Shown: in pieces, positions 1 through 58,421 of the stretch
Numbering within the stretch: the stretch's first letter is position 1
Layout: each line of letters opens with the position of its first letter
Assembly: GCA_044225175.1 (NCBI GenBank)
Contig: JBGAJA010000001.1
Location: 6,994-70,993 of the forward strand
DNA: 64,000 nucleotides
Direction of reading: 5' to 3'
Origin: Candidatus Omnitrophota bacterium
GTDB taxonomy: Bacteria > Omnitrophota > Gorgyraeia > Zapsychrales > Fredricksoniimonadaceae
Position numbers and translations under genes: made by a program
The notes under the pieces: model-generated
What the model was told of the DNA's origin: nothing
Seen by the model: the letters and a program-made list of their open reading frames with translations, nothing else
Databases searched by the model: none

Positions 1-3000
1 AGTTTATCTTTTAGACGTGATGGAACGCTTTATGTCACAACAAAAGACAAATTATTAAGTCTGAATAAGGGAGAAACGCAGATTACATCTCATCCTTATA
101 TAGGTTTTCGCCAACTAGCTTTCGACCAAGAGGGGGGGTATATCGCTGCTGGTATAGAAGATGGTCATTTAAAATTTATAGATCCGAAGTGGAAAGAGTT
201 ATGGGAGGAAAAGATTGGGGGAATTAAAAGTTTATCGTTCTCAAAAAATGGACAATTGGCTGTGGGAACAATCAGTGGCCGTTTAATCATTTTTGATAAA
301 GGTGGATCCAGGTTATTGGATGTGCAAATAGATCCCTATAGGATCGAGGTCTTATTTGACAATGAAGGTCGATGTGTTGTCATCACAACAGACGGGCGGG
401 TGTTTCGCTATCAAGATACCTATGGTTTAATTGTAGAGGACCATGTCCATGAATTGTCCTCTGGCGTTTCAACTCCCAAGTCTTTCTTACCGAAGAAAGT
501 TCAAGTAATCAACATTCTTGAACAACATTCAAAGGATATTGCTCAGGATCAGAAATTCATTCAACTTAAACTGACTGCAGGTATAGCCCAGAATGACAAA
601 GACCGCAGGCAGGCGCTTGAGCAATTACGGGTATTTTTAGATGAGAACAAGGGGCAATTAGGCGTTCACTCCTCGGGTACTATTACCAGTCAATCCTCTT
701 TATCCCAGCAGGTCCAAATTGTTACAATCTCTGAACAACCTAAGAATGATGAAGCCAAGATATTCACCAAACTCAAGCTTGAGGCAGGATTGAGTCGTGA
801 TGATAAAGAGCGTACAAAAATATTGAGTGGATTGAAGGAATTGTTAGAGAAGTATGAAGGGCAATTAGACATTGCAAATGTGAAGAAAGAGCAAATTAAG
901 GATGATGATATTGTTCGAGCTTGGCTTAAGAAATGGTCTTCAGTCCTGCCACCTTTGGATCAAGTGCTCACTGTAAATCGTTCTGCTAATGGCCATTGGG
1001 CGATTACTACGGCAAATGGATTGCTAATTGTACTGGATCGAGAATATAAGGAAGTGTTTAATCAACATATAGGAAGCATAAAACGATTAATATTTTCAAA
1101 TGAAGGGGCTTTAGCGGTTGAGACAGACTCCGGAACTTTGATGGTGATTGATTCAGATGGAAAAATAAGTAAAACTGTTAACCCGAATACAATATACAGT
1201 TGGAGATTCTCTAATAAAGGTTATTTAGCAGTGATTACAACGGGCGGATATCTCATGCTGTTTGATAATAGCCGAAAGTTAATACTCAATGAAAAAATGG
1301 AAGTGTCCATCTTTGAATTTTCCGATGAAGGTAATTTGACAATCAGTACCCCAGATGAGCATTTAATTAAGTTCAATGAGCAAGGAGATAAAGTATTTGA
1401 TGAGAAAATTGAAGATATGCTTCATTGGAAAGTATCAATTGAAGGAAGTGTCGTTGTTACTAAGGGTAATCGTTTCATCATGATTAATAAGAATGGCCAA
1501 AGGGTTTTTCAAGAATCTATGAATTCAATCCGAGCTTGGAGATATTTGGAGGATGGGAGGTTAGTGATTGAAACCAAAGAAGGTTTAATTGTGATAGATA
1601 AGAAAGGTAGTAGAGTTTTTGATGAAAAGTTTTATCTTACTCAATTTAAGTTATCCAATGAGAATCATTTGGCAGTTGTGAGAACAACAGACAAGTCTGT
1701 AGGAAACGCAATTATGCAGGATCAGCGTTTGATTATTAAGAATAAAGAAGGAAAAGAAGTCTTCAATGAGAGTATAGGAATTATAAAAGAATGGAAATTT
1801 TTAAGTGATGGAATGTTGTTTGTCATCACTCTTGAAGACCAAGTGATTAAAATCAACAAAAAAGGTGAAAAAGTCTTTGATCAGAAGATTAATCACATTA
1901 AAGGATGGGATTTATCAACCAGGGAGCATTTAGCGATATATACAGATGATCGATTGCTATTATTTAATAATAAAGGAGAGAATTTAATGGATGACCGAAT
2001 CCAAGGCATCCACAAAGCCATGTTCCTTGGTGAGGAATTACAGGTGATCACAAAACATGGGACAATTCTTCATTTTAAAGAACGATTAGGATTTGTTTCA
2101 GAGGGAAAGATCTATGAGCTTTCTTCTGGGATAGCAAATGAGCAATCATCCTTGGGAGAAAAAGTGCAGGTATTGACCATGAGAAATGAGAGAAGCTCAA
2201 ATGTCAAGGTTCCTGCGCTTTCAAAACCCTCTCAAAAACCCTTCGAACCCCATTATGGCTTGAAACCTTTTTATTTCGCTGCTGATCGACAAGGATTTGT
2301 TTATTTGAATTTTAAAGGCTCTTGGTATCAAACCCGCCATCAAATCTTGGGTAAGCATGTTTTTGATGTAAAAGAAAGTGAAATAGCCATTGTTAATAAG
2401 AAGTCATTGCAAGTCTCTTCCATCCCACTATCTTCTATTCGCAATCCTTTTCTTAAAGATGATCAACCCTTAAAAGAAGAAGATTTCTTGATTGAGCATC
2501 ATGACCTTGAAAAAGCTGAGTCTAATATTCTTTCTTCTTTTGCTTCAGGTATCCATGTCGGCTTAGAAGGTTCACCAGCTGCAGGAAAGACGAGCATTAC
2601 CCAAGAAATTGCTTTGCTGTTGGGGCTTGATTATTTTAAGTTTCAAATGCATGGCGAGCGGCAAACGGAAGATTTATTTGGAGGATATCAGGAAGATGCG
2701 TATGGGCGCTGGCGTTTAGTGGCCAGGCCTAAGGACTTGACGGAAAGACAGATGGCTTCTTTAGGAGACGGTCTTCGAAGCAAACTTCTTTCTCATGGAA
2801 TCCTGGCTTTAGATCAGTTATCAGGGTTGTATTGGTGGAATGAAACAATCACAGGGAATGTTGAACTGGAGGAAGCTTTAAGTATCCTTTCAGAGCCTTT
2901 GGATACACAAGAACAGGCCCAGATCTTTTCTCTTTTGCACTATCAAATACCCTTCTTGGAATTATTGACTCATGGAGGCCTTTTAGTCCCTGATGAAGGG

Positions 3001-6000
3001 GCGGTTGGAGAAGGTGGGCAGAGTTTATTAAGCTGGTTTAGTGCGATCGTTCAGGGAGATCCTGTCATAAATCTAGAATCTTTTCCTGGAATACCATTCC
3101 ATGTTCGTGTGCATCAAGATTTTCATTTAGGTATCACATCCAACGCACCAGAAAATACACCTCAACGTGAACGGTTCAAGAGTGAAATTGGTTCTCATAT
3201 TCAATACATTGTGGTGCGTGAGAATACTGACCCTATATTTTTACAAAAAGTTTTCAAACATTTCTTGGGAACAGTGCAAGGTATTGATGGGCAAGCAATT
3301 GAAAAGATGTCCAAAACAGCCTCCCAAGTGCATTTGGACATACGTGAGCAAATAGGAAAGACCTTGGGGAAGGGTCAAGAAGAGCGTTTTTATCTTTCCC
3401 CTCGAGATATTCGTCGATTGGGAAGATATGTTCGCAAGAACTTAAAAGAACAAGATGATCTGGGTTATGTGATGTATAAGGCTTTGCGTTTAGTTTATGA
3501 GGCCGGATTTTCCTCCCAAGTGGAGCGTTCCATTGTTCTTAAGAAGATCAATCAATCTATTGAAGGTACTTTTGGTCCTTCAGGAACTTTTGAGCAGAAA
3601 TTAAAAGATGAAATCAACCGGAATTTCTCTCAAGCATTGACGGAAAATGAGGCATGGATGTTGTGGTTGAGCCATGAACTTTTGAATTTGGATGAGCCTG
3701 TTATGTATATGTATGAGTATGGCGCAAGGCTTGAAGACATTATTGAAGAAATGCGCATCAAAAGAAATGCTGATATTCAAATCATCGATGCTGCTCCTGA
3801 AAATGGCCGCTTTGAAATCATAGGAAGCTTACGGCCTGTTCTTGGAGTTGTTCCTCCAGGCCAATTGAAGGCCAAATTTGCTAGAGGAGGGATTTTAAGA
3901 AACCTTATCAGCCATCTCCAAATGCAATCTCAAAAGGACAGCAAGCCAAAGAAAGAAACCATTGTCTGGATCAGGGACATTGATCAATGGAGTGAAGACT
4001 TGCGTACTGCTTTGAATGGTTTATTGGAAGATGGATATATAGATATTGAAACTGATGGGGGGAAAGTAGAACGTTTTTATAAGCCATCGAATGTGCATTT
4101 TATTTCTGAGCTTCCCATGGATACAGCGACAGAGTTTTCAAGCGCCTTTTTTAGTCGATGGATTCGCTGTGGGATTGCTGCAGAAAGAACAATAGCTCAA
4201 GAGGGGGGTGTTTCACAGTTGGAAGAAGTTTTACATAAAGCCTATGATTTGGATGAAAGGCAGGCGTTTTGGTTAAACAGGATTTATATGGAATTGATGG
4301 AGTATGAGACACAAGTCAATCGCAAGCGTTGGAACATCCAACGTCGCTATGATCTATCAGTCAGTTTGATTTATGAAGTAGCTGAGTCTATACGCCTGGC
4401 TAAACGCAAGGACCTCCAATGGCTGGATCTTCTTAACACAATCAAGACTACAGGTTTTGATCCACGAATCCAAAAAGCACAAGGGCCTATCCAAGAAGCT
4501 TTCACTGCTTTGTATACAAGTGTATCCGCGCGAATAGTAGGCAATGAATTGATGGCAACCCTAGGGATGCGCTTTAGACCTGAAGGACTTACTAATATCA
4601 TCTCTGATCGCGAACTGTTTACCGAAATCATTGAAATTATCTTGAATCAAAAGATTGACGCGCCTAATTATCCGCTTGTGGTTGAAAAAGGTGTGTTAAT
4701 GACACACACCGTTCAGGAAGCATTCTTAACTATGGACAAAGGTCTTCTATTAGGTAGAGGAGTCATCCTAGAGGGGGACACTGGAAAAGCCAAAACAACC
4801 GCAGCAGAATCATTTGCAAGGCTTAAAGGAATGGATTATTACAAGTATCAATCGCATGCAGGAAGCTCAATTTCTGATTTGACAATTGAAATAAATAGAG
4901 ATGCTCAGGGAAATTTCTCTAAGGCTGAAAAGTTGTTTTATCAAAAAATCCGCCAAGGAAATGTTGTTGTCAATGTGGATGAGGCCAATGTGGCGCCTAA
5001 TATTCTTTGGGCTTTGCAAGCCATTTTGAGGGGAGAAAGAATGATTTATCCCCCCATCCCAGGAGAAGAGCCATTTGCTATTGGTGAAAACGTTTTAATC
5101 GTTTTTACTCAAAACCCTCCTGACTTAGAAGGCCGCAGCGAAACTCCTCGACGGTTTATTGACCGTATGCTGGTCCATAAGATGGGTCATTTGTCAGAAG
5201 CAGAAGAAGACGCGTTGACAGCTATGTTTTATGGTGTACCTCTTCAAGATGACAATGTCCCCAAGGAACGCCAGAGAGTGGTGCTTCAACGGCCATCTCC
5301 TCGTGAAGGAGAAGTGCATTTTCATGGGGGAATTGATTTACGAATGAGAGAAGGACAAGAAACATTCGATGACACCAAAGAAGATGATACTGAGATTGAA
5401 TGGGATTCGCAGGGTAAGCCAGCTGCTTACGGTGTTTTTACCCCTGAACTTTATCCTCATACACGTTATGGAGCATCCGGAGCATTTGATGAAACAACGC
5501 AAAGCTTTGTTATCCCAAATACTCCTGATCCACAGACGCAGCATTTTTTCCAATCTCGTCGTCTCACTCGTACATTGACCCGTAGTCATGACACATTTAG
5601 TGGTCGCTATGGCATGGCATTAGACCATCAATGGCATTTGTTGCCTGCCGCTGGAACGCCCATGGAGATCTTAGATATTCATGTCCTAGATGAAAATGGC
5701 CATAAAATGGATGTCCCATTGGAAATTGCTAAAGACCATTTTGACAATTGGTTCGTTCGTGCCCCTCAAATCAAAATGTTTAAAGATGTGCAACTGGAAT
5801 ATCGAGTGGCTGTTCCCAAGGTTTATTTTGGCCGACCCGTTCCTAGCAAGATTTTGTTTGAATATTCTCAGCAGATGTCCCAAGAGATTAAAAAGGGTAT
5901 GGAGTTAGTTGGTTTAAGTGGGAAAGAAAAAGATTATCGGGAAGTTCTGTATAAGCTGGTTGGATTTTTTAGAAATTTTGATGTGAAAAGCGGAGATATT

Positions 6001-7617
6001 CCTGATGTTCATGGAAGTCCTTATCTCAATATTATGTATGAACAAAACGGTGTTTGCCGACATCGGGCTTGGGCATTTGTGAGGACAGCTTTAGGACTAG
6101 GTATAGAGGCCAGATATGTTTTAAGTGATATCCATGCTTTTGCGGAAGTCAAAGTTCCTGGCTTAGATTTCTGGATGAGAATTGATTTAGGCGGAGGTGG
6201 AGATCCCATGAATATGTCTCTGGCGCCTTTGGCCAGTGAAATGTACCAACCAGCTTTTGGTGATGATCTTCCTCAGCCAGTTAAATTTCTTGAAAACCAA
6301 AAGAAATTTGAGAAACGAATGGAAAAGGCACTAAAAAAGCAAAACATCAAACCTCAAGTTTCCCAACGCAGCAGCAGTCAATCCAAAAGTCCAGATGATA
6401 AGCAGGATGCTTCTAAAGACCAGTCGTTTGACCGTCAATCTGAAGAACAGCGTATTAAAATGGAAACCGAAAGTCGTATGCATCAAGCAGTAGATCAAGA
6501 GGAGCTTAAAGGTGATATCAATGAACAATTTATTTCTGGAAAGCAGCAAACAGCTTTTGTTTTTGAGCGTTTATTTGATAGCATCAAAGCTGGTATTCGC
6601 ATCCTTCGAGAATTTAAAAGGACGGGAATTGAAATTGACCCGATAGCGATTATGCTTAAACATTCCAAGCCTTTTATTAGCAAGCGTAAAATCAATAAGA
6701 TGAAAAAGACCGCAGCTATGATTTTAATTGATGTGAGTGGAAGTATGGGTGGTGTTAAGAAAGAGATGGCATTTGCCATTGCAGCAATTGGAGGAGGTTT
6801 TTGGCAGCTAAGACAGGTGGCTCAGAAATACTTCTTATATGACATATCTTTTTTTAATATGCAGCCTTCAACATTGGTCCAAATGGGCCAGCAGTTAACA
6901 GAGGATGAAAATAGAAATTTGTTGACCTCTATGGCCAATCACATAGGAGAGGGTGGAACGAACATTGTCGATTCCATGCGTCTGAAGCTTAAAAACCCAC
7001 AGAAAACGGGATTCTTGGATTCGCCTGAAGCCATGCGATCCAGCAATAAATATATTGTCATCTTTACAGATGGGGCAGACAGTAATTCCATTAAAGATAA
7101 GAAAATGACACCCGCATTTGCCGAGGTGTTATCTCAATACCGAGCCGCAGGAATTGATGTTTTTGCTGTGGGTATAGGTCAAGGAGCTAGTGACGTGCAG
7201 GCCTTTACAGGCCAAGGGCAGCATTTTATTACAATCGATGAAGAGAATTATATGGGCATTGCCTTGGCTATTGCTAAGATTGCAGATTTAAAAAGCAAAG
7301 GTGGGGGGTATCTTAAAGAGGGAGACTTGACTGAGCTAGTCTTTGGCCGCACATCTTCCGATCACGCTCAACTTTCTAATGTTCCTAGCGATAAAACCGA
7401 ACCTCTGGGAGGTATAGACCTCAGCCATCCTGAAAGTTTTTTGCAAACTAACAATGATGGAGGAGTAATTAGGCTGACTATTGACCCTGCAATGCTCCAA
7501 TACCTCCAAAACTCTCCAGGTTTTTACCCTATTATTCTTAATGTCCAACCATTGGATGATTTAGGAATATTCTTAGGAATGAATAGTGATCAAAAAATAC
7601 AAGCACTTAAGACGTGA
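1..7617 (+). CDS. Giant multidomain protein, 5' partial (the frame is open from nt 1, so the gene begins upstream of the window). N-terminal ~40-aa beta-propeller repeats, two AAA_5 (MoxR/midasin-type) ATPase domains, an acidic/Ser-rich linker, a C-terminal VWA (MIDAS) domain, and a ~69-aa conserved family tail.
   Basis: Frame 1 is open from nt 1 and in frame with the 2453-aa track ORF. The N-terminal part has ~40-aa propeller-like repeats rich in D, G and hydrophobic residues (for example DGRVFRYQD, LIVLDREYKEVF). Walker A motifs GSPAAGKTS (nt ~2575) and GDTGKAKTT (nt ~4775), Walker B VNVDEAN (~4975) and the AAA_5 signature VFTQNPPDLEGRSETPRRFIDRM are present. The VWA MIDAS motif reads ILIDVSGSMGG (~6720) ... 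IVIFTDGADSN (~7060). The tail GGIDLSHPESF...GFYPIILNVQPL lies at 7408..7614. Confidence 0.8.
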   Translation, partial: SLSFRRDGTLYVTTKDKLLSLNKGETQITSHPYIGFRQLAFDQEGGYIAAGIEDGHLKFIDPKWKELWEEKIGGIKSLSFSKNGQLAVGTISGRLIIFDKGGSRLLDVQIDPYRIEVLFDNEGRCVVITTDGRVFRYQDTYGLIVEDHVHELSSGVSTPKSFLPKKVQVINILEQHSKDIAQDQKFIQLKLTAGIAQNDKDRRQALEQLRVFLDENKGQLGVHSSGTITSQSSLSQQVQIVTISEQPKNDEAKIFTKLKLEAGLSRDDKERTKILSGLKELLEKYEGQLDIANVKKEQIKDDDIVRAWLKKWSSVLPPLDQVLTVNRSANGHWAITTANGLLIVLDREYKEVFNQHIGSIKRLIFSNEGALAVETDSGTLMVIDSDGKISKTVNPNTIYSWRFSNKGYLAVITTGGYLMLFDNSRKLILNEKMEVSIFEFSDEGNLTISTPDEHLIKFNEQGDKVFDEKIEDMLHWKVSIEGSVVVTKGNRFIMINKNGQRVFQESMNSIRAWRYLEDGRLVIETKEGLIVIDKKGSRVFDEKFYLTQFKLSNENHLAVVRTTDKSVGNAIMQDQRLIIKNKEGKEVFNESIGIIKEWKFLSDGMLFVITLEDQVIKINKKGEKVFDQKINHIKGWDLSTREHLAIYTDDRLLLFNNKGENLMDDRIQGIHKAMFLGEELQVITKHGTILHFKERLGFVSEGKIYELSSGIANEQSSLGEKVQVLTMRNERSSNVKVPALSKPSQKPFEPHYGLKPFYFAADRQGFVYLNFKGSWYQTRHQILGKHVFDVKESEIAIVNKKSLQVSSIPLSSIRNPFLKDDQPLKEEDFLIEHHDLEKAESNILSSFASGIHVGLEGSPAAGKTSITQEIALLLGLDYFKFQMHGERQTEDLFGGYQEDAYGRWRLVARPKDLTERQMASLGDGLRSKLLSHGILALDQLSGLYWWNETITGNVELEEALSILSEPLDTQEQAQIFSLLHYQIPFLELLTHGGLLVPDEGAVGEGGQSLLSWFSAIVQGDPVINLESFPGIPFHVRVHQDFHLGITSNAPENTPQRERFKSEIGSHIQYIVVRENTDPIFLQKVFKHFLGTVQGIDGQAIEKMSKTASQVHLDIREQIGKTLGKGQEERFYLSPRDIRRLGRYVRKNLKEQDDLGYVMYKALRLVYEAGFSSQVERSIVLKKINQSIEGTFGPSGTFEQKLKDEINRNFSQALTENEAWMLWLSHELLNLDEPVMYMYEYGARLEDIIEEMRIKRNADIQIIDAAPENGRFEIIGSLRPVLGVVPPGQLKAKFARGGILRNLISHLQMQSQKDSKPKKETIVWIRDIDQWSEDLRTALNGLLEDGYIDIETDGGKVERFYKPSNVHFISELPMDTATEFSSAFFSRWIRCGIAAERTIAQEGGVSQLEEVLHKAYDLDERQAFWLNRIYMELMEYETQVNRKRWNIQRRYDLSVSLIYEVAESIRLAKRKDLQWLDLLNTIKTTGFDPRIQKAQGPIQEAFTALYTSVSARIVGNELMATLGMRFRPEGLTNIISDRELFTEIIEIILNQKIDAPNYPLVVEKGVLMTHTVQEAFLTMDKGLLLGRGVILEGDTGKAKTTAAESFARLKGMDYYKYQSHAGSSISDLTIEINRDAQGNFSKAEKLFYQKIRQGNVVVNVDEANVAPNILWALQAILRGERMIYPPIPGEEPFAIGENVLIVFTQNPPDLEGRSETPRRFIDRMLVHKMGHLSEAEEDALTAMFYGVPLQDDNVPKERQRVVLQRPSPREGEVHFHGGIDLRMREGQETFDDTKEDDTEIEWDSQGKPAAYGVFTPELYPHTRYGASGAFDETTQSFVIPNTPDPQTQHFFQSRRLTRTLTRSHDTFSGRYGMALDHQWHLLPAAGTPMEILDIHVLDENGHKMDVPLEIAKDHFDNWFVRAPQIKMFKDVQLEYRVAVPKVYFGRPVPSKILFEYSQQMSQEIKKGMELVGLSGKEKDYREVLYKLVGFFRNFDVKSGDIPDVHGSPYLNIMYEQNGVCRHRAWAFVRTALGLGIEARYVLSDIHAFAEVKVPGLDFWMRIDLGGGGDPMNMSLAPLASEMYQPAFGDDLPQPVKFLENQKKFEKRMEKALKKQNIKPQVSQRSSSQSKSPDDKQDASKDQSFDRQSEEQRIKMETESRMHQAVDQEELKGDINEQFISGKQQTAFVFERLFDSIKAGIRILREFKRTGIEIDPIAIMLKHSKPFISKRKINKMKKTAAMILIDVSGSMGGVKKEMAFAIAAIGGGFWQLRQVAQKYFLYDISFFNMQPSTLVQMGQQLTEDENRNLLTSMANHIGEGGTNIVDSMRLKLKNPQKTGFLDSPEAMRSSNKYIVIFTDGADSNSIKDKKMTPAFAEVLSQYRAAGIDVFAVGIGQGASDVQAFTGQGQHFITIDEENYMGIALAIAKIADLKSKGGGYLKEGDLTELVFGRTSSDHAQLSNVPSDKTEPLGGIDLSHPESFLQTNNDGGVIRLTIDPAMLQYLQNSPGFYPIILNVQPLDDLGIFLGMNSDQKIQALKT

Positions 7618-7647
7618 GTTTTAAAAGAATTATGTTAGTATCAAAAA

Positions 7648-8295
7648 ATGATCAAAATACGCGCCTTTAATAAATCTGACCGCCCAAGAATCAGGCAGAT
7701 TTGCTGTGATGTGGCTGATCGGGGTGAGCCTATTGAGAGTTTCTTTCCTGATCGTGAATTTGCGGCAGATCTATTGACCAAGTATTATACAGATTATGAA
7801 CCTGAGAATTCTTTCGTGGCAGAATCGGATGGCCTTGTGGTGGGATATATTAATTCTGCATTAGATAATCGTCGCTATGGTCTGGTAATTATTTTCATTA
7901 TCATCCCTTTTATTTTGATCAAGGGGATTGTTCGAGGAGTTTTTATCCGGCCAGAATTCCTACAAATTCTTAAGGCATCATTGAAAAATTGGCGTCGACT
8001 TTTTGTATTGCGCAAAACTTCCTTTGGAAGTCATCAGGGGCATTTGCATATCGGGATCTTAAAAGAATTTCGCCATCAGCACATTGGAGAGAAGTTGGTT
8101 CAAGTATTATTGGATCATGCTAAGAACACGGAAGTTACGGAAATTGTTGCCTCTGTTAGTGATCAAAATCCTGCAGCATGTCGCTTTTTTGAACGTTTAG
8201 GCTTTATTGTTTTGAGTCGTTACCCTATGATGATGGCCGATGGTCCAACAATCAAAGAATATCACTCCATTTCGTATGTTAAGAAAATTCGTTAA
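7648..8295 (+). CDS. GNAT family N-acetyltransferase
   Basis: A GNAT motif A-like segment GILKEFRHQHIGEKLV and motif B-like RFFERLGF are present in a protein of 215 aa. An unusual hydrophobic insert (IIFIIIPFILIKGIV) sits mid-protein. Confidence 0.55.
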   Translation: MIKIRAFNKSDRPRIRQICCDVADRGEPIESFFPDREFAADLLTKYYTDYEPENSFVAESDGLVVGYINSALDNRRYGLVIIFIIIPFILIKGIVRGVFIRPEFLQILKASLKNWRRLFVLRKTSFGSHQGHLHIGILKEFRHQHIGEKLVQVLLDHAKNTEVTEIVASVSDQNPAACRFFERLGFIVLSRYPMMMADGPTIKEYHSISYVKKIR

Positions 8296-10510: not shown

Positions 10511-10945
10511 GTGAATATGGATGTTAAGATTTTTAGTAAGCGCATGATTGAATTGATGCCTCAATGTATCAGAGGATTCCATAGTTACGAATCCAACTAT
10601 CTTTCCCATGGCAAAATAAGCCAACCACAGTTTTGGGCTTTAGAGTATCTTTCCCGTAAAGGGCCTTCCTTAATGAGTGAAATTGCTGATTTTTTAGCTG
10701 TTAGTCGTCCAGCTGCTACAGGACTAATTGATCGATTGATTATCCAAAAACTTGTCAGCCGACAAGTTGGAGAGGATGATAGACGCAGCGTTAAAGTAGA
10801 GATTACTGCTAAGGGTAAAAAGATCGTTTCCAATATATGGGACCAGAAACGCCGAAGTTTAGAGAAAGTTTTTTCTCAGATTTCTTCCAAAGATAGACGC
10901 CAGCATTTGGAAATTTTAGAAAGGGTTGTGAAAGTTCTTTCTAGT
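10511..10945 (+). CDS. MarR-family transcriptional regulator (wHTH). There is no in-frame stop; the frame continues into the downstream OMF gene, so the 3' end is approximate.
   Basis: The MarR wHTH region reads QFWALEYLSRKGPSLMSEIADFLAVSRPAATGLIDRLIIQKLVSRQVGEDDRRSVKVEITAKGKK. The domain is complete by ~aa 145 (nt ~10945). The track ORF 10511..12193 runs uninterrupted into the efflux OMF. Confidence 0.6.
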
Positions 10946-12193
10946 GGAGTTTGTATTCTTTTGATTGAAGTGATTGCTTTTTTTAGCTTTTCAATCAGTG
11001 CTTTTGCAAGTGAGCAGCCTCCTACTGCGCTGACACTTCAAGAAGCTTATCAACTGGCTCTTAAGCGTTCAGAATCAATTGCGATCAATCAAGAAATCAT
11101 CAAAGAGGCTGAAGGGCGGTTTTTGCGCTCTTTTAGCGGCATATTGCCTCAAGTCAATTATGAAATTTCCCGCCAATGGCAGGATCAAAGCTCCAATGAT
11201 TCAAGTGGCAATAGATACCGACGTTTTACATTAAGCCAGCCTTTATTTAGTGGTTTTAAAGAGTATGCAGCGATTTCCTCGACAAAAGCTCTTCGTAAAC
11301 AAAGAGAAAGTGAGCTTAGGCGAGCCCAAGAGCTTCTTTTTACAGATGTGGCCGATGCGTTCTATTTAATTCTAACTTATCAAGAAGATTTGCAAGCTTT
11401 AGGAGATATTCATAAAGCATTAACAGATCGCTTTGGGGAATTGAAACGGCGGCAAGATTTGGGTCGATCTCGTGAGAGCGAGGTTGCTAGTGCAGAAGCC
11501 TCCTTGTATAAGACTGAAGCTGATCAGGAAGCTGTCAGAAGTCAATTATCTGTTGGTCAACAGCTTTTAGAATTTTTGACGGGAAAGCCTTTTAGTGGTA
11601 TTCAAGAGGACCCTTTACCCACTGATTCTGCTAAAACAATGGATGAATTTGTAGCGAAGGCTAATCAAAGAGCAGATGTTCAAGCAGCCAGGCAAGCTGT
11701 CATTGTGGCTAAAAAGAATGTGACCATTGCTCGAGCCGGATTTTGGCCATCTGTAACACTGGATGGAAATTCTTATGACCAAAGAAAGGGTGCTTCTGAG
11801 AATGTAGATTGGGATGTCACTTTAAATATAACTGTTCCACTTTTCAATGGAGGCGAGACCGTTGGAAGTATTAAAGAAGCTCAGGCCCTTGCCAAACAAT
11901 CGGAATTATTATTGAGTCAAACAGAACGTTTGGCTGTTTTAGATATTCAAAATTCTTATACCAGATTTCTAGAAGGTCAGAAAAGAGAATCAGCTTTAAA
12001 AAAGGCATCTGATTCTGCCCAGCGAAACTTCCAATTGCAGGAAAGAGACTACAAAAGCAGCTTGGTTAATAACTTGGATGTTTTGCAAGCCCTTGAAGAT
12101 TGGACAGATCGACGCAGGGATTACATTGTTATTAAAAATGATGCGAAACGATCTTATTGGAATTTAAAAGTAGCTGCAGGAGAGTTGATATGA
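10928..12193 (+). CDS. Outer-membrane efflux factor (TolC/OMF family); the start is inferred at an in-frame GTG with a signal peptide
   Basis: GTG at 10928 gives MKVLSSGVCILLIEVIAFFSFSISAFA-SEQ, a classic signal peptide with an AFA cleavage site. The mature region carries the two-repeat OMF architecture (LTLQEAYQLALKRSESI..., ...ARAGFWPSVTLDGNSYD...). The 3' end shares an ATGA overlap with the RND pump gene. Confidence 0.6.
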   Translation: MKVLSSGVCILLIEVIAFFSFSISAFASEQPPTALTLQEAYQLALKRSESIAINQEIIKEAEGRFLRSFSGILPQVNYEISRQWQDQSSNDSSGNRYRRFTLSQPLFSGFKEYAAISSTKALRKQRESELRRAQELLFTDVADAFYLILTYQEDLQALGDIHKALTDRFGELKRRQDLGRSRESEVASAEASLYKTEADQEAVRSQLSVGQQLLEFLTGKPFSGIQEDPLPTDSAKTMDEFVAKANQRADVQAARQAVIVAKKNVTIARAGFWPSVTLDGNSYDQRKGASENVDWDVTLNITVPLFNGGETVGSIKEAQALAKQSELLLSQTERLAVLDIQNSYTRFLEGQKRESALKKASDSAQRNFQLQERDYKSSLVNNLDVLQALEDWTDRRRDYIVIKNDAKRSYWNLKVAAGELI

Positions 12194-29052: not shown

Positions 29053-30817
29053 ATTCTTCACTTTAAGTCTTTTCGTTTTGTTGGGTTCTTTAAATATTTC
29101 TTCTGCAGAAGATGTCAGTTTTGAAGCTACGGTGAATGCAAATCAAATTTCATTACCAGAGGCTCTAGAGCTTACATTAACGGTCCATGGAGCCAAAAAT
29201 ATTCCTCCTATTTCGATTCCCACCATCGACGGATTTCAAGTGCGTTATGTCGGCCCGTCAACCAGATTCTTAATTGTTAATGGAGTCTCTTCCAGTGAGC
29301 ATTCATTTGTTTATAATCTTTTTCCTTCTAAGACAGGTCGTTTTCAAATCCCTTCTCTATCTTTATTTATTGATCAAAAAACATATTCAACGAATCCCAT
29401 CGATATTGAAGTGATAGATACTCCAACTTCATCTGCGAGTACTGCTGATTCACCAGCAAAAGTAGGGGGAAGTATAGAGGACAAGGTTTTTTTAAAAGTA
29501 TCCATTGCTCCTAAAGAAGTTTATGTGGGAGAAAGGACTCCGCTTTCGATGAAGGTTTATGTGAAAGATTTTGGTCTTCAATTATCTTCTGCTCCTGGAG
29601 TTAAGGCAGATGGCTTTCTGACAGATTCAACTGCAAATATGCAAAAAAGCAGTGAGAACATCAATGGAATAGTTTATGAAACGCTCACATTTGATACTAA
29701 TATTTATCCAACCCAACCAGGTCCGTTAAAAATAGGACCATTTCAAGCTGTTGGACAACTTGTTTATCAGGTAAAGACAGGTAATGATATTTTTTCTGAT
29801 TTCTTTGGGAGGCAAGAAGCAAGACCTATTGCATTGCGAGCTGATCCTCTTACTATTGATGTCAAAGCCTTGCCAGAGGATGGAAAGCCTTCAGATTTTT
29901 CTGGTGCCATTGGACAATATGATTTTAAGGCAAGTGTAGGGCCCTTAGCCGTAAAATTAGGTGATCCTTTAACGCTACGAATGACAGTTTCGGGAAATGG
30001 TCGCTTTAAGAATTTAACCATGCCGGGATTGAATGATTCCCGCTTTAAAACATATGATCCTCAGATCAAAGAAGATGATAATTCTAAGACGGTTGAGCAG
30101 GTAATTATTCCAACCGATCAGAATATCAAGGAAGTGCCTCCTTTAAGTTTTAGTTACTTTGATCCTCAAGAGAAGAAATATAAAACAATCATACAAGGCC
30201 CATTTTCTATTTCTATCACAGCTCCTGCTAAAGGAGAAGAGTTTAAGGCTTATGGTTTTATGGACAAAACTGTTTCAGAAAAAACATCTAACATCAAATC
30301 TGATGGTATTAATAAATTATTTCAATTTTGTAGGGGCTTGATTAATCAAGCCCCTACGTTGGTAAAGAATTGGCGTTTCTGGTTTATCGTTATTGTCAGC
30401 ATAGTTCTTTGGGTAGGGATTAAAATTTGGCAAAGCTTCCAAAGGAGGCTGCAAAATGACCAAGCCTTTGCTAAGAAGTTTAATGCCCCTATGGAGGCTA
30501 AAAAGGGGTTCAAGCAAGCGGGTGAATTATTAACACAAAATAAAAACAAAGAGTTTTATGATGCTATTGATAAGACTCTGCGAAACTATTTAGCGCATAA
30601 AATGCATCAGCCAATTGGTAGTATGACAATCGCAGCTATGGAAGTTAAGCTGTCTCAAGCACATGTGGAAGAGAAATACATAACTGACTTAAAAGAGATT
30701 ATGGAAAGATGTGACCAAATTCGTTTTGCCGGTGTATTGCCCGATCAAAATCTTATGCAAAAAGACCTCCAGAAATTGCAGGGAATAGTGGCCTATTTGG
30801 ATAAGAAACTTAAATAA
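29033..30817 (+). CDS. batD: BatD-like protein (oxygen-tolerance family), secreted or membrane-anchored
   Basis: A signal peptide leads into a large beta-rich ectodomain, then a TM segment (FWFIVIVSIVLWVGIKIW) and a C-terminal cytoplasmic helical region. This is the canonical BatD architecture and its usual operon position. Confidence 0.7.
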   Translation: MWTRIGKFFTLSLFVLLGSLNISSAEDVSFEATVNANQISLPEALELTLTVHGAKNIPPISIPTIDGFQVRYVGPSTRFLIVNGVSSSEHSFVYNLFPSKTGRFQIPSLSLFIDQKTYSTNPIDIEVIDTPTSSASTADSPAKVGGSIEDKVFLKVSIAPKEVYVGERTPLSMKVYVKDFGLQLSSAPGVKADGFLTDSTANMQKSSENINGIVYETLTFDTNIYPTQPGPLKIGPFQAVGQLVYQVKTGNDIFSDFFGRQEARPIALRADPLTIDVKALPEDGKPSDFSGAIGQYDFKASVGPLAVKLGDPLTLRMTVSGNGRFKNLTMPGLNDSRFKTYDPQIKEDDNSKTVEQVIIPTDQNIKEVPPLSFSYFDPQEKKYKTIIQGPFSISITAPAKGEEFKAYGFMDKTVSEKTSNIKSDGINKLFQFCRGLINQAPTLVKNWRFWFIVIVSIVLWVGIKIWQSFQRRLQNDQAFAKKFNAPMEAKKGFKQAGELLTQNKNKEFYDAIDKTLRNYLAHKMHQPIGSMTIAAMEVKLSQAHVEEKYITDLKEIMERCDQIRFAGVLPDQNLMQKDLQKLQGIVAYLDKKLK

Positions 30818-30869: not shown

Positions 30870-32852
30870 ATGCCTAGAAATATTGATTTCAAACGAACCT
30901 TCCTCGTGGGGCTTCTCTGTGCTTTTATCTTAAACGTCCTGGGGCCATTGCCATCTAGGGCAGAGGAGTTTTATCTTCCTAAACCTGGGCAAATGGTCCA
31001 TTTAAGCCTTCTTGTGAACCCTCCTTTGCTCAAAGGAATCAAGGTCCATCCAGATAATCCTTTTATGTTCGATTTTATCCTAGATCAAGGGTCACGTTCC
31101 GTCGCTGATGCACATAAATTGAAGGAAGAGTCCAGCCGTCTAATCAAGTACTTTTTGGCCTCTTTAACCACCCCAGAAGCCGACCTATGGGTAAACCTAA
31201 GCCCCTATGAGAAAAACCGCATAGTCCCCGAAAGCTTTGGCCAAACCGAGATGGGCCGCGACCTTTTAGCCCAGGACTACATGCTCAAACAGATCACCGC
31301 CAGTCTGATGTATCCAGAAGAAGAGATTGGCCGTAAGTTTTGGAAGAGAATCTATGAAGAATCCGCCAAAAGGTATGGAACAACCAACATTCCAGTCAAC
31401 ACATTCAACAAGGTATGGATAGTCCCCGAGAAAGCCGTAGTCTATGAGAATGCAAAGGCCGGAACAGCCTATGTAGTGGAATCCAGGCTAAAGGTAATGT
31501 TGGAAGAAGACTACGTAGCCTCCAAAAAGGTGTCAGACACCTTTTTGAAGGGGCGGGTTGATAAAAAGGTGTCAGACACCTTTTTGCACAGTCAGATCAT
31601 ACGGGAGGTTGTTATTCCTGAATTGACTAAGGAGATCAATGAAGGGGCCAATTTTGTGCAGCTTAGGCAGGTTTATAGTTCTTTGATTCTAGCCACTTGG
31701 TACAAGAAGAAGATTAAAGATTCGATTTTGGCGCAGGTGTATGTCGATAAAAATAAAATCGTAGGGGTGGGTTCCAAACCCACCCAAGACCGGGCTGGTT
31801 TAGAACCAGCCCCTACGGATATTGAATTAATTTACCAACAATACCTCCAATCCTTCAAAAAAGGTGTCTATAACTACATCAAGGAAGAATCAGACCCGCT
31901 AACGAAACAACCTGTTCCCAGGAAATATTTCTCAGGAGGAGTTAATTTCTTTGGCGATTTGGCTATGAGTACTATAAACCAATTGCCTAATTCTGTGGGT
32001 CCAAAGAACCTGGCAATTGTGGGGGTACAAGTGCGTCCCGTTGATGAGCGAACGTCAGGGATTAAAAATTGGGATGATGTAGATATAGAGGGTTCCTTGC
32101 GACGTTTATTGAAAGTAGAGGAAAGGGAAGATGAAGGATTAGATCAAAAAATCAAAGAAGTGGCACTATTTATGAGTAAAGCTACTATTGGTAGATCTGC
32201 TGTTATGCGTCAAGTTTTAAATGATTTTGTGGATACGTATGGCATCAAAATGGAATTATTGCCTTCGACAACAAAGAAACAGTTATTGACAATCGTTATA
32301 AAAATAACAGGTCAACAAACGTATGAGGTATGGACAAGGTTTATTCAAGAAATAACACGGAAGTTCGGGATAGACATTCAAGAAATAGAAGAAGGACAGA
32401 AGCAGCAATTATTAACGGCTGGGCTGTATGTGGCATTAGGAAAGAAGAACAAGAAAGAAGGGGTGGTAGTATCGGATCAAGAAGAAGTATTTAATGATTT
32501 TCTAGTTTTTGTTAAGGAAACATTTGGGATTAGTGAGGAGGAACTAAGGTTAAAAGAAACAGAAGGAGGGCTTAAGTTAAGTGAGAAATTTCAAATGATC
32601 GTAGCTGGATATCATGTGTCTTTAGGCAAAGCCGAAGGATTAAATACATTTAAAGAGACAATCAAGACCATCCGAGAAACATTTGGGATTAGTGAGGAGG
32701 AACTAAGGTTAAAAGAAACAGAAGGAGGACTTAAGTTAAGTGAGAAATTCCAAATGATTGTAGCTGGATATCAGGTGTCTTTAGGCAAAGCCGAAGGATT
32801 AAATACATTTAAAGAGACAATCAAGACCATCTCGAGAAACATTTGGGATTAG
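30870..32852 (+). CDS. Giant-protein family member, N-terminal fragment. It has a signal peptide, the conserved family N-domain, and then 53-aa tandem repeats; the reading frame is lost at 32852.
   Basis: The signal peptide is MPRNIDFKRTFLVGLLCAFILNVLGPLPSRAEE. The N-domain is almost identical at protein level to the 48163 and 58422 paralogs (LIKYFLASLT.PE.DLWVNLSPYEKNRIVPESFGQTEMGRDLLAQDYMLKQITASL, PRKYFSGG). It ends with 2.5 in-frame copies of ETFGISEEELRLKETEGGLKLSEKFQMIVAGYHVSLGKAEGLNTFKETIKTIR. Confidence 0.75.
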   Translation: MPRNIDFKRTFLVGLLCAFILNVLGPLPSRAEEFYLPKPGQMVHLSLLVNPPLLKGIKVHPDNPFMFDFILDQGSRSVADAHKLKEESSRLIKYFLASLTTPEADLWVNLSPYEKNRIVPESFGQTEMGRDLLAQDYMLKQITASLMYPEEEIGRKFWKRIYEESAKRYGTTNIPVNTFNKVWIVPEKAVVYENAKAGTAYVVESRLKVMLEEDYVASKKVSDTFLKGRVDKKVSDTFLHSQIIREVVIPELTKEINEGANFVQLRQVYSSLILATWYKKKIKDSILAQVYVDKNKIVGVGSKPTQDRAGLEPAPTDIELIYQQYLQSFKKGVYNYIKEESDPLTKQPVPRKYFSGGVNFFGDLAMSTINQLPNSVGPKNLAIVGVQVRPVDERTSGIKNWDDVDIEGSLRRLLKVEEREDEGLDQKIKEVALFMSKATIGRSAVMRQVLNDFVDTYGIKMELLPSTTKKQLLTIVIKITGQQTYEVWTRFIQEITRKFGIDIQEIEEGQKQQLLTAGLYVALGKKNKKEGVVVSDQEEVFNDFLVFVKETFGISEEELRLKETEGGLKLSEKFQMIVAGYHVSLGKAEGLNTFKETIKTIRETFGISEEELRLKETEGGLKLSEKFQMIVAGYQVSLGKAEGLNTFKETIKTISRNIWD

Positions 32853-34260
32853 TGAGGAGGAACTAAGGTTAAAAAAGAAACAGAAGGAGGACTTAAGAGC
32901 AGTGAGAAATTCCAAATGATTGTAGCTGGATATCATGTGTCTTTAAGCAAAAGCGAAGGAGGAATACATTTAAAGAGACAATCAAGTGAGAAACATTTCC
33001 AAATGAGGAGGAATCGTTAAAAGAAACAGAAGGAGGACTTAAGTTAAGTGAGAAATTCCAAATGATCGTTGTAGCTAGATATGCGGTGTCTTTAGGCAAA
33101 GCTGAAGGATTAAATAAGGATTGAGAAACATTTGGGATTAGTGAGGAGGAATTAAGGTTAAAGAAACAGAAGGAGACTTAAGTTAAGTGAGAAATCCAAA
33201 ATGAGTAGCTGGATATCAGGTGTCTTTAGGCAAAGCCGAAGGATTAAATACATTTTCAAGTGAGGAGGAACTAAGGTTAAAAGAAACAGAAGGAGGACTT
33301 AAGTTAAGTGAGAAATTCCAGATCGGAGCTGGATACTAAGGTTAAAAGCTACAAGGACTTAAGAAATTCCGAAGGATTAATTCCCGAAACAAAGAGACAA
33401 TCAAGATAATTCGAGAAACATTTGGGATTAGTCTAAGGTTAAAAGAAACAGAAGGAGGACTTAAGTTAAGTGAGAAATTCCAAATGATCGTAGCTGGATA
33501 TCCGGTGAGTTTAGGCAAAGCCGAAGGATTAAATACATTTAAAGAGACAATCAAGATAATTCGAGAAACATTTGGGATTAGTGAGGAGGAACTAAGGTTA
33601 AAAGAAACAGAAGGAAACATTTGGGATTAGTGAGGAAGGATTAAATACATTTAAAAAGAGACAATCAAGATATAATTCGAGAAACATTTGGGATTAGGTG
33701 AGGAGGATTAAGGTTAAAAGAAAAGAGGACTTAAGTTATGGAGAAATTCCAAATGATCGTAGCTGGATATCAGTGTGTCTTTAAGGAAAGCCGAAGGATT
33801 AAATACATTTAAAGAGACAATCAAGATAATTCGAGAAACATTTGGGATTAGTGAGGAGGAACTAAGGTTAAAAGAAACAGAAGGAGGACTTAAGTTAAGT
33901 GAGAAATTCCAAATGATCGTAGCTGGATATAGTGTAGCTACAAGGAAAGCCGAAGGATTAAATACATTTAAAGAGACAATCAAGATAATCCGAGAAACAT
34001 TTGGGATAGTGAGGAATACAGGTTAAAAAGAAACAGAAGGAGGATTAAGTTAAGTGAGAAATTCCAAATGATTGAGCTGGATATCATGTGTCTTTAGGCA
34101 TTTGAAGGATTAAATACATTTTAGTCCGAGAAACATTTGGGATTAGTGAGGAGGAATTAAGGTTAAAAGAAACAGAAGGAGGACTTAAGTTAAGTGAGAA
34201 ATTCCAAATGATTGTAGCTGGATATCAGGTGTCTTTAGGCAAAGCCGAAGGATTAAATAT
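32517..34260 (+). repeat. Array of about 11 tandem 159-bp (53-aa) coding repeats. The first ~2.5 copies are in frame; the rest, 32853..34207, are heavily degraded by indels and rearrangements.
   Basis: The unit gaaacatttgggattagtgaggaggaactaaggttaaaagaaacagaaggagg...atcaagaccatccga recurs with period 159. Later copies carry deletions, scrambling and a variant (aagataattcga in place of aagaccatccga). Both flanks belong to one family gene. Confidence 0.85.
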
Positions 34261-35584
34261 ATTTAGGAGTAATTTGCAGGGGCAGGCACAAAAAATAGGG
34301 CCGAGACCTCAACAGCCGCTTGTGATACAAGGTTGGTTAAGCGCTATAGTTCAAGGGGTCAATAATAGTTATATCAAACGATATAGTTTTTCAATTCTTT
34401 CTATAGATCAAGCGATGAGAGTAACTACATCCCCTCTTCTAGAACGATTTGCAGCGCGCGCAATTGAAGAAGCTGATTTAACAGATGAGCATGTCGTTGA
34501 TGTGGTAGGAGGGAGATTTAACGAAGGATATGAATTCCCCAATGGTTTTCGACCAGGAAGAGTTTCGTTAGGTATGGGCCATGGATTGTCTACTGATCGA
34601 ATGATAGAAAGATGGCATGGTGCGGGAAGAGATAAGGTTGTATTTGAACGTCGAAATAGGCTCGGAAGAGTTAAGTCTCAAGTTCTTTGGGTAAAAATGA
34701 AATCGGCAGAGGAAGAAATTGCAGAATGGGAGAATAAAGGAGACCTTGATTTAGCAAGATTTTGGCTTGGTGAAATTAGGAGGCACGTCGTTAAAGATTC
34801 AAATGAAGGTTTTCAGTTAGCTACTGGCAGATTTGGAGAAAATCTTGAATTTTATGATGGTTTTAAACCTGGTCGTGTTGCAATGGGAGTGGGGCATATT
34901 TTAGATGGAGAAACACTAGCGCTGGAATGGCATGGTACAGGAAAAGATAAGATTATTTTTGAACGTCTAGATGCTGATGGAAAAGTGATTGCAAAAGTAT
35001 TATGGGTTAAGTTAAAGACGAAAAAAGGAGAACCTCCGCAATGGGAAAATAAGGGAGACTTTGAGTTGGCAAGGTTTTGGTTAGGTGAAATTAATCGCAT
35101 AGAGATAACCTCAACAATCGCTACAGAATTATATCAGGGAAGGTTTAATGCGGGATTTAGATTTGATGGGAATGGATATTTGGCTGGACAGGAGTATATG
35201 GGAATTGGTCATGGAGAGCCAGGGGACAGGATTTTTATGGATTGGATAGGAACGAGAAGAAATAGAGTGCAAATTAGTAGGGAACGTCGTTCTGAGGTTA
35301 TTATAACAGCAGAATGGTTTACGATCAGACAGCACAATGCGAAAGATTTGGATGAGTGGAACAGAGATCAAGCTCAAATATCTGAAACAGCAATATTTAC
35401 AAAAGGTGGTATTGATTTGACAGCCGATAAAACACCCTTGCAGATCCAAAATATTGAGGAGGGTATTCATTTTAAATTCGACCCTGCGATGATACAGAAA
35501 TTCCAAAATGCCCGTGGTTTTTACCCCGTGATTGTGAACATTATCCCACTGCAGGATGTAAGAGAATTTTTAGGTGCTTTGTAA
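34208..35584 (+). CDS. Giant-protein family member, C-terminal fragment. It opens with the tail end of the 53-aa repeat, then has three ~100-aa internal repeats and the conserved family C-terminal tail.
   Basis: It begins MIVAGYQVSLGKAEGLN, which is the repeat unit. The three internal repeats are GRFNEGYEFPNGFRPGRVSLGMGHG...VLWVKMK...WENKGDLDLARFWLGEI. The tail GGIDLTADK...GFYPVIVNIIPL lies at 35405..35581. Confidence 0.7.
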   Translation: MIVAGYQVSLGKAEGLNIFRSNLQGQAQKIGPRPQQPLVIQGWLSAIVQGVNNSYIKRYSFSILSIDQAMRVTTSPLLERFAARAIEEADLTDEHVVDVVGGRFNEGYEFPNGFRPGRVSLGMGHGLSTDRMIERWHGAGRDKVVFERRNRLGRVKSQVLWVKMKSAEEEIAEWENKGDLDLARFWLGEIRRHVVKDSNEGFQLATGRFGENLEFYDGFKPGRVAMGVGHILDGETLALEWHGTGKDKIIFERLDADGKVIAKVLWVKLKTKKGEPPQWENKGDFELARFWLGEINRIEITSTIATELYQGRFNAGFRFDGNGYLAGQEYMGIGHGEPGDRIFMDWIGTRRNRVQISRERRSEVIITAEWFTIRQHNAKDLDEWNRDQAQISETAIFTKGGIDLTADKTPLQIQNIEEGIHFKFDPAMIQKFQNARGFYPVIVNIIPLQDVREFLGAL

Positions 35585-58385: not shown

Positions 58386-58421
58386 TTGACCAAAGCGATC
58401 AAATACACTTTGGAGAATATT

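Follow-up and report, generated by a model that had tools for sequence, protein, structure and literature searches.

A giant gene of an Omnitrophota bacterium encodes part of a probable single-chain, midasin-like AAA+ protein

Single-chain rings of six AAA+ modules, such as those of dynein, midasin, and RNF213, are regarded as eukaryotic inventions that were derived from one-module bacterial MoxR-like ATPases. Midasin (Rea1/MDN1) acts in the biogenesis of the eukaryotic 60S ribosome, and its MIDAS domain binds the UBL domains of Ytm1 and Rsa4. The protein also contains a helical linker domain of about 1,700 amino acid residues (aa) and a D/E-rich region of several hundred residues. The bacterial NorQ-NorD and CbbQ-CbbO pairs, which serve metal insertion or the activation of Rubisco, consist of a homo-hexamer of one-module subunits and a separate vWA protein and lack a peptidase domain. 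Zhang and Aravind placed the origin of the six-module chain in early eukaryotic evolution and proposed that the products of the MoxR-vWA-YebA(TGL) operon form a membrane-proximal protein-processing system (PMC3495828). In the present study, we analysed a stretch of 64,000 nucleotides (hereafter, the window) from a Candidatus Omnitrophota bacterium (contig JBGAJA010000001.1, positions 6,994 to 70,993). A giant gene at nucleotides (nt) 1-7617 of the window encodes AAA modules, a polar linker, and a MIDAS-containing VWA domain in one polypeptide, which an initial annotation made from the sequence alone had likened to midasin.

The gene occupies frame 1 of the + strand, as do all of its features described below, and runs without a stop codon from nt 1 to the termination codon at 7615-7617 (2,538 codons). 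Although the first listed in-frame start of this open reading frame (ORF) is at nt 256, homology to related proteins spans the whole frame; thus, the N-terminus of the giant lies beyond the window. The translation and this homology uphold the earlier statement that the 5' end is outside the window and that the frame is open from nt 1. About 55-60% of the chain, its C-terminal part, is encoded by the ORF; the protein belongs to a rare bacterial family, whose members are probably single-chain AAA+ machines of the midasin/dynein kind. The observation made in the initial annotation was partly confirmed, and its midasin-like interpretation was partly supported. The finding is more interesting than was stated there: the midasin-type, ring-like six-module organization is a conserved trait of a bacterial family. 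The giant would work like the systems with which we compare it, but its architecture is new. We found no prior description of bacterial midasin-like or six-AAA proteins in the searchable literature, although an earlier mention is not fully excludable, and the papers on Omnitrophota giant genes do not mention this architecture.

A profile search for midasin- or dynein-like AAA modules had been suggested in the initial annotation. Among the PDB sequences, midasin was the top match for the profiles of all three AAA modules in the window, designated C1, C2, and C3. The C3 profile matched midasin with an E-value of 5.2e-33; its similarity to NorQ was far lower (1.2e-5), followed by dynein (7.5e-4). 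In the case of C1, the E-value for midasin was 5.7e-29, and the next match was McrB (7e-4). The gap between midasin and the next family is at least 20 orders of magnitude for both profiles. The C2 profile matched midasin alone (E-value of 2.2e-5), with EPVLLisEkGaRt aligned on EPVLLVGETGTGKT. In a database of 5.8 billion proteins, eukaryotic midasins were the best matches after the family itself, and the eukaryotic origin of these matches was checked by gene context (microsporidian, exon-like). The MoxR model of Pfam, AAA_3, scored 25.2 bits on the giant, below the cutoff of 27. On sequence grounds, the AAA modules of the giant are specifically of midasin type (AAA_5) and not of MoxR type (AAA_3) or bpMoxR type.

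We modelled the three modules together with AlphaFold2 (AF2; aa 814-1790, 16-sequence family alignment). The model had a mean predicted local distance difference test score (pLDDT) of 83.6 and a predicted template modelling score (pTM) of 0.82. In a Foldseek search of the PDB, the top 50 matches were all dynein motor domains (best E-value of 2e-28 over about 985 columns, query TM-score (TMq) of 0.57) and included the dynein AAA1-AAA3 fragment 7z8h. Superposition of the modelled block over 680-1,000 positions was seen exclusively with dynein and midasin rings. Because dynein motors fill the Foldseek list while the one-module ATPases CbbQ, NorQ, McrB, and MoxR align over 188-251 residues only, C1-C3 with their lids are predicted to pack as three consecutive modules of a dynein/midasin ring, that is, as a half-ring.

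The first of the three, C1 (aa 832-1090, nt 2494..3270), is an AAA_5-type module and the family's fourth of six, delimited by the family alignment, the C1 profile, and AF2. Its Walker A motif is GSPAAGKTS at aa 857-865 (nt 2569-2595), with K863, and the sensor-1 residue is N1048. The initial annotation had recognized this Walker A motif correctly; however, it took LALDQLS (aa 935-941) as a degenerate Walker B motif. We rejected this assignment, since the family alignment puts LALDQLS in a lineage-specific C1 insert of about 55 aa that was seen solely in the closest relatives. The true Walker B motif, GGLLVPDEGAVGE (aa 992-1004, with LLVPDE at aa 994-999), is intact and contains D998-E999 family-wide. 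In the family alignment, G-K-T and D998 are invariant, and E999 is present in at least 90% of the sequences. The proposal that the first AAA module is catalytically dead is not supported, as its Walker A lysine and Walker B Asp-Glu pair are conserved; the dead module is the middle one, C2.

C2 (aa 1222-1398, nt 3664..4194) had been missed, as only two AAA modules were reported, and it lies between them. It was recognized by its AF2 fold between C1 and C3, by its profile, and by hhalign, which gave a probability of 96% against midasin AAA4. C2 has no P-loop, the corresponding region having decayed to EYGARLED, and VWIRDIDQW stands at the position of Walker B. The module C3 (aa 1573-1739, nt 4717..5217) was defined by Pfam AAA_5 (aa 1587-1723, E-value of 7.8e-15, 55.5 bits with a cutoff of 22) and by the C3 profile. 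Its motifs are GDTGKAKTT at aa 1592 (K1598), VVVNVDEAN at aa 1655 (D1660-E1661), and VFTQNPPD...GRSETPRRF at aa 1699-1719 (sensor-1 N1705), so that the canonical AAA_5 reported earlier was confirmed. The Walker A and B residues of C1 and C3 are invariant or nearly so in the family.

The family was searched exhaustively with HMMER, with aa 1339-2538 as the query, against 1.84 billion cluster representatives. The search gave 2,101 matches, 40 of them at E<=1e-30 (best E-value of 7e-276). The top matches are giants of 1,800-6,900 aa that are colinear with the window protein, at 35-42% identity, through the AAA, TGL (transglutaminase-like), linker, and VWA regions. A scan of JGI metagenomes added six further loci, two of which (L008 and L005) contain informative ORFs: that of L008 (2057-15052) is complete (4,331 aa), and that of L005 is at least 4,986 aa long. 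The L005 product aligned with aa 748-2447 of the window protein in one blastp segment (38% identity over about 1,800 columns). Judging from these alignments, chance resemblance of the giant to its family is excluded. The named members are the Candidatus Omnitrophota proteins MBF0531693.1 and MBF0595136.1 and Elusimicrobiota proteins, including MCB4792139.1 from 'Ca. Liberimonas magnetica'; these giants of 3,000-6,900 aa come from metagenome-assembled genomes and are annotated only as 'AAA family ATPase'. The closest relatives point to an Omnitrophota genome as the source of the window. A scan of a collection of genome contigs gave a single match, an unrelated Paludibacteraceae AAA_5 protein, and a scan of the giant with NCBIfam gave just two weak sub-threshold matches (BamB-like and TsaE-like).

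From the family alignments, we made hidden Markov models (HMMs) of six module types and compared them pairwise with hhalign, which reports probabilities. The module order N1-N2-N3...C1-C2-C3 was found in 20 proteins (17 distinct family members), among them every one with a start codon and an N-terminal domain. The P-loop modules N2, C1, and C3 are mutually related (98-99%), as are the modules without a P-loop, N1, N3, and C2 (91-97%); degenerate and active modules therefore alternate along the chain. A large WD40 insert separates N3 from C1 in the subfamily of the window protein and C1 from C2 in a second subfamily. This second subfamily includes P0032, P0040, P0045, P0049, P0050, P0053, and P0071; at least P0032, P0040, and P0050 carry an HEFRH metallopeptidase-like domain instead of TGL. 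The full-length plan is an N-terminal signal or anchor region, N1-N2-N3, 1-6 WD40 units, C1-C2-C3, a peptidase-type domain, the linker, the MIDAS-VWA, and a terminus that is either a conserved tail of about 70 aa, as in the window, or transmembrane helices. Other family members have a different N-terminal domain that is followed by transmembrane helices, with further helices after the VWA.

The C-terminal arm was modelled separately (AF2, aa 1776-2538; overall pLDDT of 75). Between the last AAA module and the linker, we found a domain that had been overlooked, a beta-sandwich with a TGL cysteine-peptidase core (aa 1810-2075, nt 5428..6225), identified by Pfam, AF2, and Foldseek. Transglut_core (aa 1976-2062) scored a sub-threshold 19.6 bits in the whole-protein scan and 23.3 bits (cutoff of 23) on the isolated segment. 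The pLDDT of this region is 87-96, and the Foldseek matches were the periplasmic domain of Pseudomonas aeruginosa TgpA (6g49, E-value of 1.4e-6) and a Cytophaga cysteine protease (3isr). The predicted catalytic triad, C2019, H2045, and D2062, is intact. Several relatives have an HExxH domain in the position of TGL (HELGH and HEFRH, and WHEFGH in L008). Because TGL is swapped for HExxH at the same position, the comparison argues that this slot would hold a peptidase-type activity.

The linker (aa 2114-2175, nt 6340..6525) is a polar/acidic low-complexity stretch in which S, D, E, Q, and K make up 65% of the residues; its pLDDT is below 50, and aa ~2121-2167 are predicted to be disordered by AF2. 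The VWA domain with a complete MIDAS (aa 2195-2435, nt 6583..7305) was identified by Pfam (aa 2241-2396, E-value of 3.5e-6, 27.8 bits with a cutoff of 23.8), AF2 (pLDDT of about 85), and Foldseek, in which the best matches were NorD (9qhe_G), the MIDAS domain of MDN1 (8ql1), and that of Rea1 (6qt8). The MIDAS residues D2244-x-S2246-x-S2248, T2320, and D2357 show little or no variation among the family members. The S/D/E/Q-rich linker at about 6340..6520 and the VWA with an intact MIDAS had both been described in the initial annotation, and both descriptions held. Every motif that the annotation quoted was found at its given position.

The giant resembles midasin in its tandem AAA_5 modules in one chain, which are followed by a disordered acidic or polar stretch and then by a C-terminal MIDAS-VWA. 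The sequence type of the modules, the fold of the VWA, which is close to those of the MDN1 and Rea1 MIDAS domains, and the six modules in the relatives are further likenesses. In the case of the order of parts, the earlier statement that the giant mirrors midasin stands, and the likeness is stronger than stated, but it does not extend to orthology. Compared with the dynein heavy chain, the sequence similarity is marginal (E-value of about 1e-3, in the P-loop region only); the giant is without the stalk/microtubule-binding domain, the buttress, and the dynein linker, and dynein is without a vWA.

The MoxR-vWA(DUF58)-TGL system (YebA/TgpA) shares with the giant a MoxR-clade AAA+ ATPase, a vWA, and a TGL thiol peptidase, the fold of which matches TgpA. 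Unlike that system, the giant is a single polypeptide and not a set of separate genes, its AAA_5 modules are concatenated and of midasin type instead of forming an AAA_3 MoxR homo-hexamer, its TGL domain is not among eight transmembrane helices, and WD40 arrays are added. The ternary systems described by Kaur, Burroughs, Iyer, and Aravind in 2020 likewise combine a MoxR-clade ATPase, a vWA, beta-propellers, and variable accessory domains. However, they are multi-gene systems with a single-module bpMoxR and a propeller of about four blades fused after the vWA, whereas the propellers of the giant are N-terminal to the ring half and the VWA. The window itself contains a complete Bat operon at 23821-30817 (MoxR AAA_3, DUF58, DUF4381, BatA, BatB, a TPR protein, and BatD), in agreement with the conventional split MoxR + VWA system annotated there. 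The operon also has a MoxR-clade ATPase and a VWA but is split, and its MoxR is of AAA_3 type (E-value of 1.6e-66). An origin of the giant by fusion of the local Bat genes was rejected, since the module types differ (AAA_5 at 55.5 bits versus AAA_3 at 25.2 bits).

We favour, with some reserve, an ATP-driven protein remodelling and processing machine as the most likely function. The six modules would close into one ring in which active and inactive sites alternate. The MIDAS domain, on its flexible linker, would capture a target protein by an acidic residue or peptide, as in midasin and as proposed for the vWA proteins that pair with NorQ and other MoxR-type ATPases (PMC7159879 and PMC13036017). 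ATP hydrolysis at N2, C1, and C3 would pull on or remodel the target, the adjacent TGL or HExxH domain would cleave or otherwise modify it, and the WD40 arrays would be a platform that selects partners. The use of ATP is suggested because the Walker A and B residues are conserved in three modules. The giant would in effect be the MoxR-vWA-TGL (YebA/TgpA) triad in one chain, with midasin-type rather than MoxR-type (AAA_3) modules.

Several points weigh against this machine. The half-ring geometry given by AF2 may have been shaped by the dynein structures used in training, and the alignment contained just 16 sequences. The N1-N3 half of the window protein is outside the window and was deduced from the relatives only. 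Two chains could pair their half-rings instead of one chain closing a ring. The Pfam score of the isolated TGL segment barely reaches its cutoff. The VWA profile found only generic VWAs in the PDB (integrin I, alpha2delta, and TRAP; E-value of about 5e-4), and midasin was not among them. We found no conserved gene neighbours of the family, and hence there is no pointer to a substrate. Finally, the nearest relatives, like the window paralogues with the tail of the giant, start with Sec-type signal peptides and lack a later transmembrane helix, which predicts export to an ATP-free compartment; since the signal peptide of the N-terminal head predicts export, it conflicts with an ATP-driven mechanism.

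A possible, though doubtful, alternative is a conflict or defence machine, a single-chain counterpart of the MoxR-vWA-beta-propeller ternary systems. The WD40 arrays would sense an invader or the state of the cell, the AAA ring together with the vWA would act as a chaperone switch, and the part of the effector would fall to TGL or HExxH. This alternative overlaps with the remodelling and processing machine and differs from it mainly in biological role. The component set (MoxR-clade AAA+, vWA, and beta-propeller) is that of subsystem 4 of Kaur et al., and the C3 P-loop, GxxGxAK[ST], recalls the GXXXTAKS variant of those systems (PMC7159879). A role in defence would also fit the swapping of an effector-like domain (TGL versus HExxH) in an otherwise fixed architecture, the variation of the propeller units from 1 to 6 among the relatives, the varying position of the insert, and the genes that stand alone without conserved neighbours. 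On the other hand, PADLOC found no match, and the Pfam bpMoxR model PF20030 did not match the giant at E<=0.1 yet matched the MoxR of the window's Bat operon; the AAA modules are of midasin type rather than bpMoxR type. The giant gene is flanked by housekeeping genes and not by a defence island, and no classical toxin or nuclease effector is present.

The termini of the family suggest another role. The C-terminal tail of the giant, GGIDL...GFYPIILNVQP...FLG (aa 2467-2538, nt 7399..7614), is followed directly by the stop codon at 7615-7617. The tail HMM matched four ORFs in the window (the giant, 34208-35584, 48163-54258, and 58386-62597), and thus the family tail noted earlier is common to all four; it is also found on the family members P0005, P0007, P0030, P0031, P0034, and P0043. 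The tail has a low pLDDT and was modelled as unstructured. Complete tail-bearing proteins share an N-terminal head, which consists of a Sec-type signal peptide and a domain of about 350 aa ending in RKYFSGG. Neither the head nor the tail gave anything meaningful in Pfam, NCBIfam, or the PDB sequences. Sec-type signal peptides precede the head in the paralogues 30870, 48163, and 58386, in P0007, and in the ORF upstream of P0005, and no later transmembrane helix was found in these proteins. In the 2,538 visible residues of the giant, no hydrophobic segment exceeded the threshold.

These features would be explained if the giant were exported, either as a surface protein or as an effector for delivery into a different cell, with the head and tail as sorting or anchoring modules. 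The whole chain would then act on the surface of the cell or within a host or prey, which would supply the ATP. Besides the signal peptides without a following transmembrane helix, the head and tail co-occur around unrelated middles (TPR, WD40, and the AAA core). VWA, TGL, and propeller domains are common extracellularly, and the closest solved TGL structure is the periplasmic domain of TgpA. Export also fits the symbiotic or predatory lifestyles proposed for Omnitrophota, the giant proteins of which were proposed to act in attachment or predation (PMC10066038). We nevertheless consider export unlikely. The Walker A and B residues that are invariant or nearly so in three modules argue for the use of ATP, and another branch of the family has transmembrane helices flanking the core, which is compatible with a cytoplasmic core. 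Moreover, the head of the window giant itself is outside the window, the tail has no match to a known sorting domain, and no secretion genes are adjacent.

The head-cargo-tail paralogues in the window are at 30870-32852, 34208-35584, 48163-54258, and 58386-62597. Their plan is a head with the pattern LPKPG.MVHLS...NP.FDFI.D.G...RKYFSGG, a variable middle (TPR/helical or WD40), and a tail of about 70 aa, GGIDL...PVIINI.P. The ORFs 30870-32852 (head only) and 34208-35584 (tail only) look like one gene that was frameshifted inside a repeat array. This array (32517-34265) is made of 159-bp (53-aa) tandem units, and the split points to a pseudogene or to assembly/sequencing errors in the repeats. 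The word GGI(D)(L/F) recurs at three borders. One copy closes the head (RKYFSGG.xF), a second comes just behind the last AAA module (aa 1776, nt 5326), and a third opens the tail (aa 2470, nt 7408); the word may mark a site of processing or serve as a strand for docking. The internal copy, GGIDLRMREGQETFD (aa 1776-1790, nt 5326..5370), lies where the ring meets the peptidase-like arm and is semi-conserved in the family.

If the giant were a true orthologue of midasin, or if bacteria had recently acquired a eukaryotic midasin gene, this would account for midasin being by far the best sequence match of solved structure for all three modules and for eukaryotic midasins being next-best in the large protein database. 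Either possibility, however, is very improbable. The identity of the modules to midasin is just 25-30% or so, three of the six family modules have lost the P-loop and alternate with the active ones, and the order of the module HMMs and hhalign did not support a one-to-one colinear mapping on midasin AAA1-6. WD40 arrays inside the ring-coding region and a TGL or HExxH domain before the VWA are absent from midasin. No region of the giant matched the midasin linker domain in any search, and the GGIDL motif and the TGL arm follow C3, which ends at aa 1739, after only about 35 residues. In place of a long D/E-rich region there is a polar stretch of about 60 aa, an order of magnitude shorter than that of midasin. 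The VWA sequence is not specifically related to the MIDAS domain of midasin. The bacterial family, further, has N-terminal signal or anchor regions and a C-terminal tail or transmembrane helices, and its host is a bacterium, hence without a nucleolar ribosome-assembly context. The family extends over two or more bacterial phyla, with identities of 35-43%, and has diversified in architecture. Because the midasin linker domain is absent and there is no specific MIDAS relationship, the giant is not a midasin orthologue.

An assembly or annotation artefact that joined separate propeller, MoxR, TGL, and VWA genes (by mis-assembly or lost stops) can be dismissed, since the L005 product aligns in a single segment that crosses every module border and the homologues are colinear, with 2,538 codons without a stop, an identical order in dozens of independent assemblies (NCBI, ENA, JGI, and Logan), a confident inter-module packing in AF2, and nothing in its favour except one hint of fragility, a frameshift splitting the P0005 gene in L004. 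The initial annotation had named such a fusion of MoxR and VWA genes, disclosed by frameshifts or stops, as what would overturn it, together with a failure of domain searches; the frame is unbroken, and Pfam places both AAA_5 and VWA above their cutoffs. In L004 (4708-6948 and 6893-17218), an overlap or frameshift separates P0005 from the N-terminal part that belongs to it. This detached part, of 746 aa, contains the head and module N1, and the true gene would encode about 4,170 aa.

The surprise is a bacterial family with six concatenated midasin-type modules that also carries both partners linked to this clade by comparative genomics, the vWA/MIDAS and the TGL peptidase. We tentatively suggest, as a possibility that we hold to be less than even, that this bacterial family genuinely stands as sister or progenitor to the midasin/dynein ring of six modules in a single chain. 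If so, the concatenation of the ring with its vWA and TGL partners existed in bacteria, in place of the proposed early-eukaryotic origin (PMC3495828). In a bolder variant, the signal-peptide head and the tail may mark ATP-dependent machines for export or for delivery into another cell. The origin of the dynein/midasin ring becomes addressable by module phylogeny and structure, and the family offers a compact ring in which active and inactive modules alternate naturally for mechanistic work. It also provides a first functional handle on the Omnitrophota/Elusimicrobiota proteins of 3,000-7,000 aa, and several proteins encoded in this one genome share the head-cargo-tail organization, which may represent a new system for sorting or docking.

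The region upstream of the ring modules is largely made of propellers. The C-terminal blades of a WD40-like beta-propeller (aa 1-142, nt 1..426), cut at the 5' side by the window, were recognized by weak Pfam beta-propeller/WD40 matches at aa 34-155 and by two blade motifs (aa 48 and aa 86); in homologues, this position is occupied by strong WD40 arrays. They are followed by a connector (GLIVEDHVHELSSG...VQVINIL) and two copies of a helical element of about 60-75 aa (aa 143-320, nt 427..960), as seen in the translation. A second beta-propeller of about 10 blades of about 38 aa each (aa 321-697, nt 961..2091) has blade motifs at aa 334, 370, 409, 446, 484, 521, 570, 605, and 644, and its Pfam signal is faint. 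The propeller repeats previously placed at nt 1 to about 2100 are borne out by the weak WD40 matches at aa 1-150 and by the 38-aa blades at aa ~320-700. The unit of helical element, propeller, and connector of the form F/I-V-x-D-E...V-x-V-L occurs in 1-6 copies in the homologues. A conserved pre-ring domain, FEPHYGLKPFYF...LNFKGSWYQTRH (aa 748-830, nt 2242..2490), is present in all family members directly before C1, and colinear homology to the relatives begins at this domain. No database family matched it.

With regard to the rest of the window, we found no tRNA genes or Rfam families anywhere in it, and no DNA tandem repeats within nt 1-7700. A GNAT gene neighbours the giant gene. The ORF at 19616-22825 (1,069 aa) matches the model of the GH149 beta-1,3-glucan phosphorylase family (NF058639, E-value of 4e-37) only in part and far below the cutoff, and it has no Pfam match. 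The ORF at 10511-12193 contains a MarR-type helix-turn-helix (aa 36-94) and outer-membrane efflux (OEP/TolC) repeats and is probably two adjacent genes that are read through from an upstream GTG.

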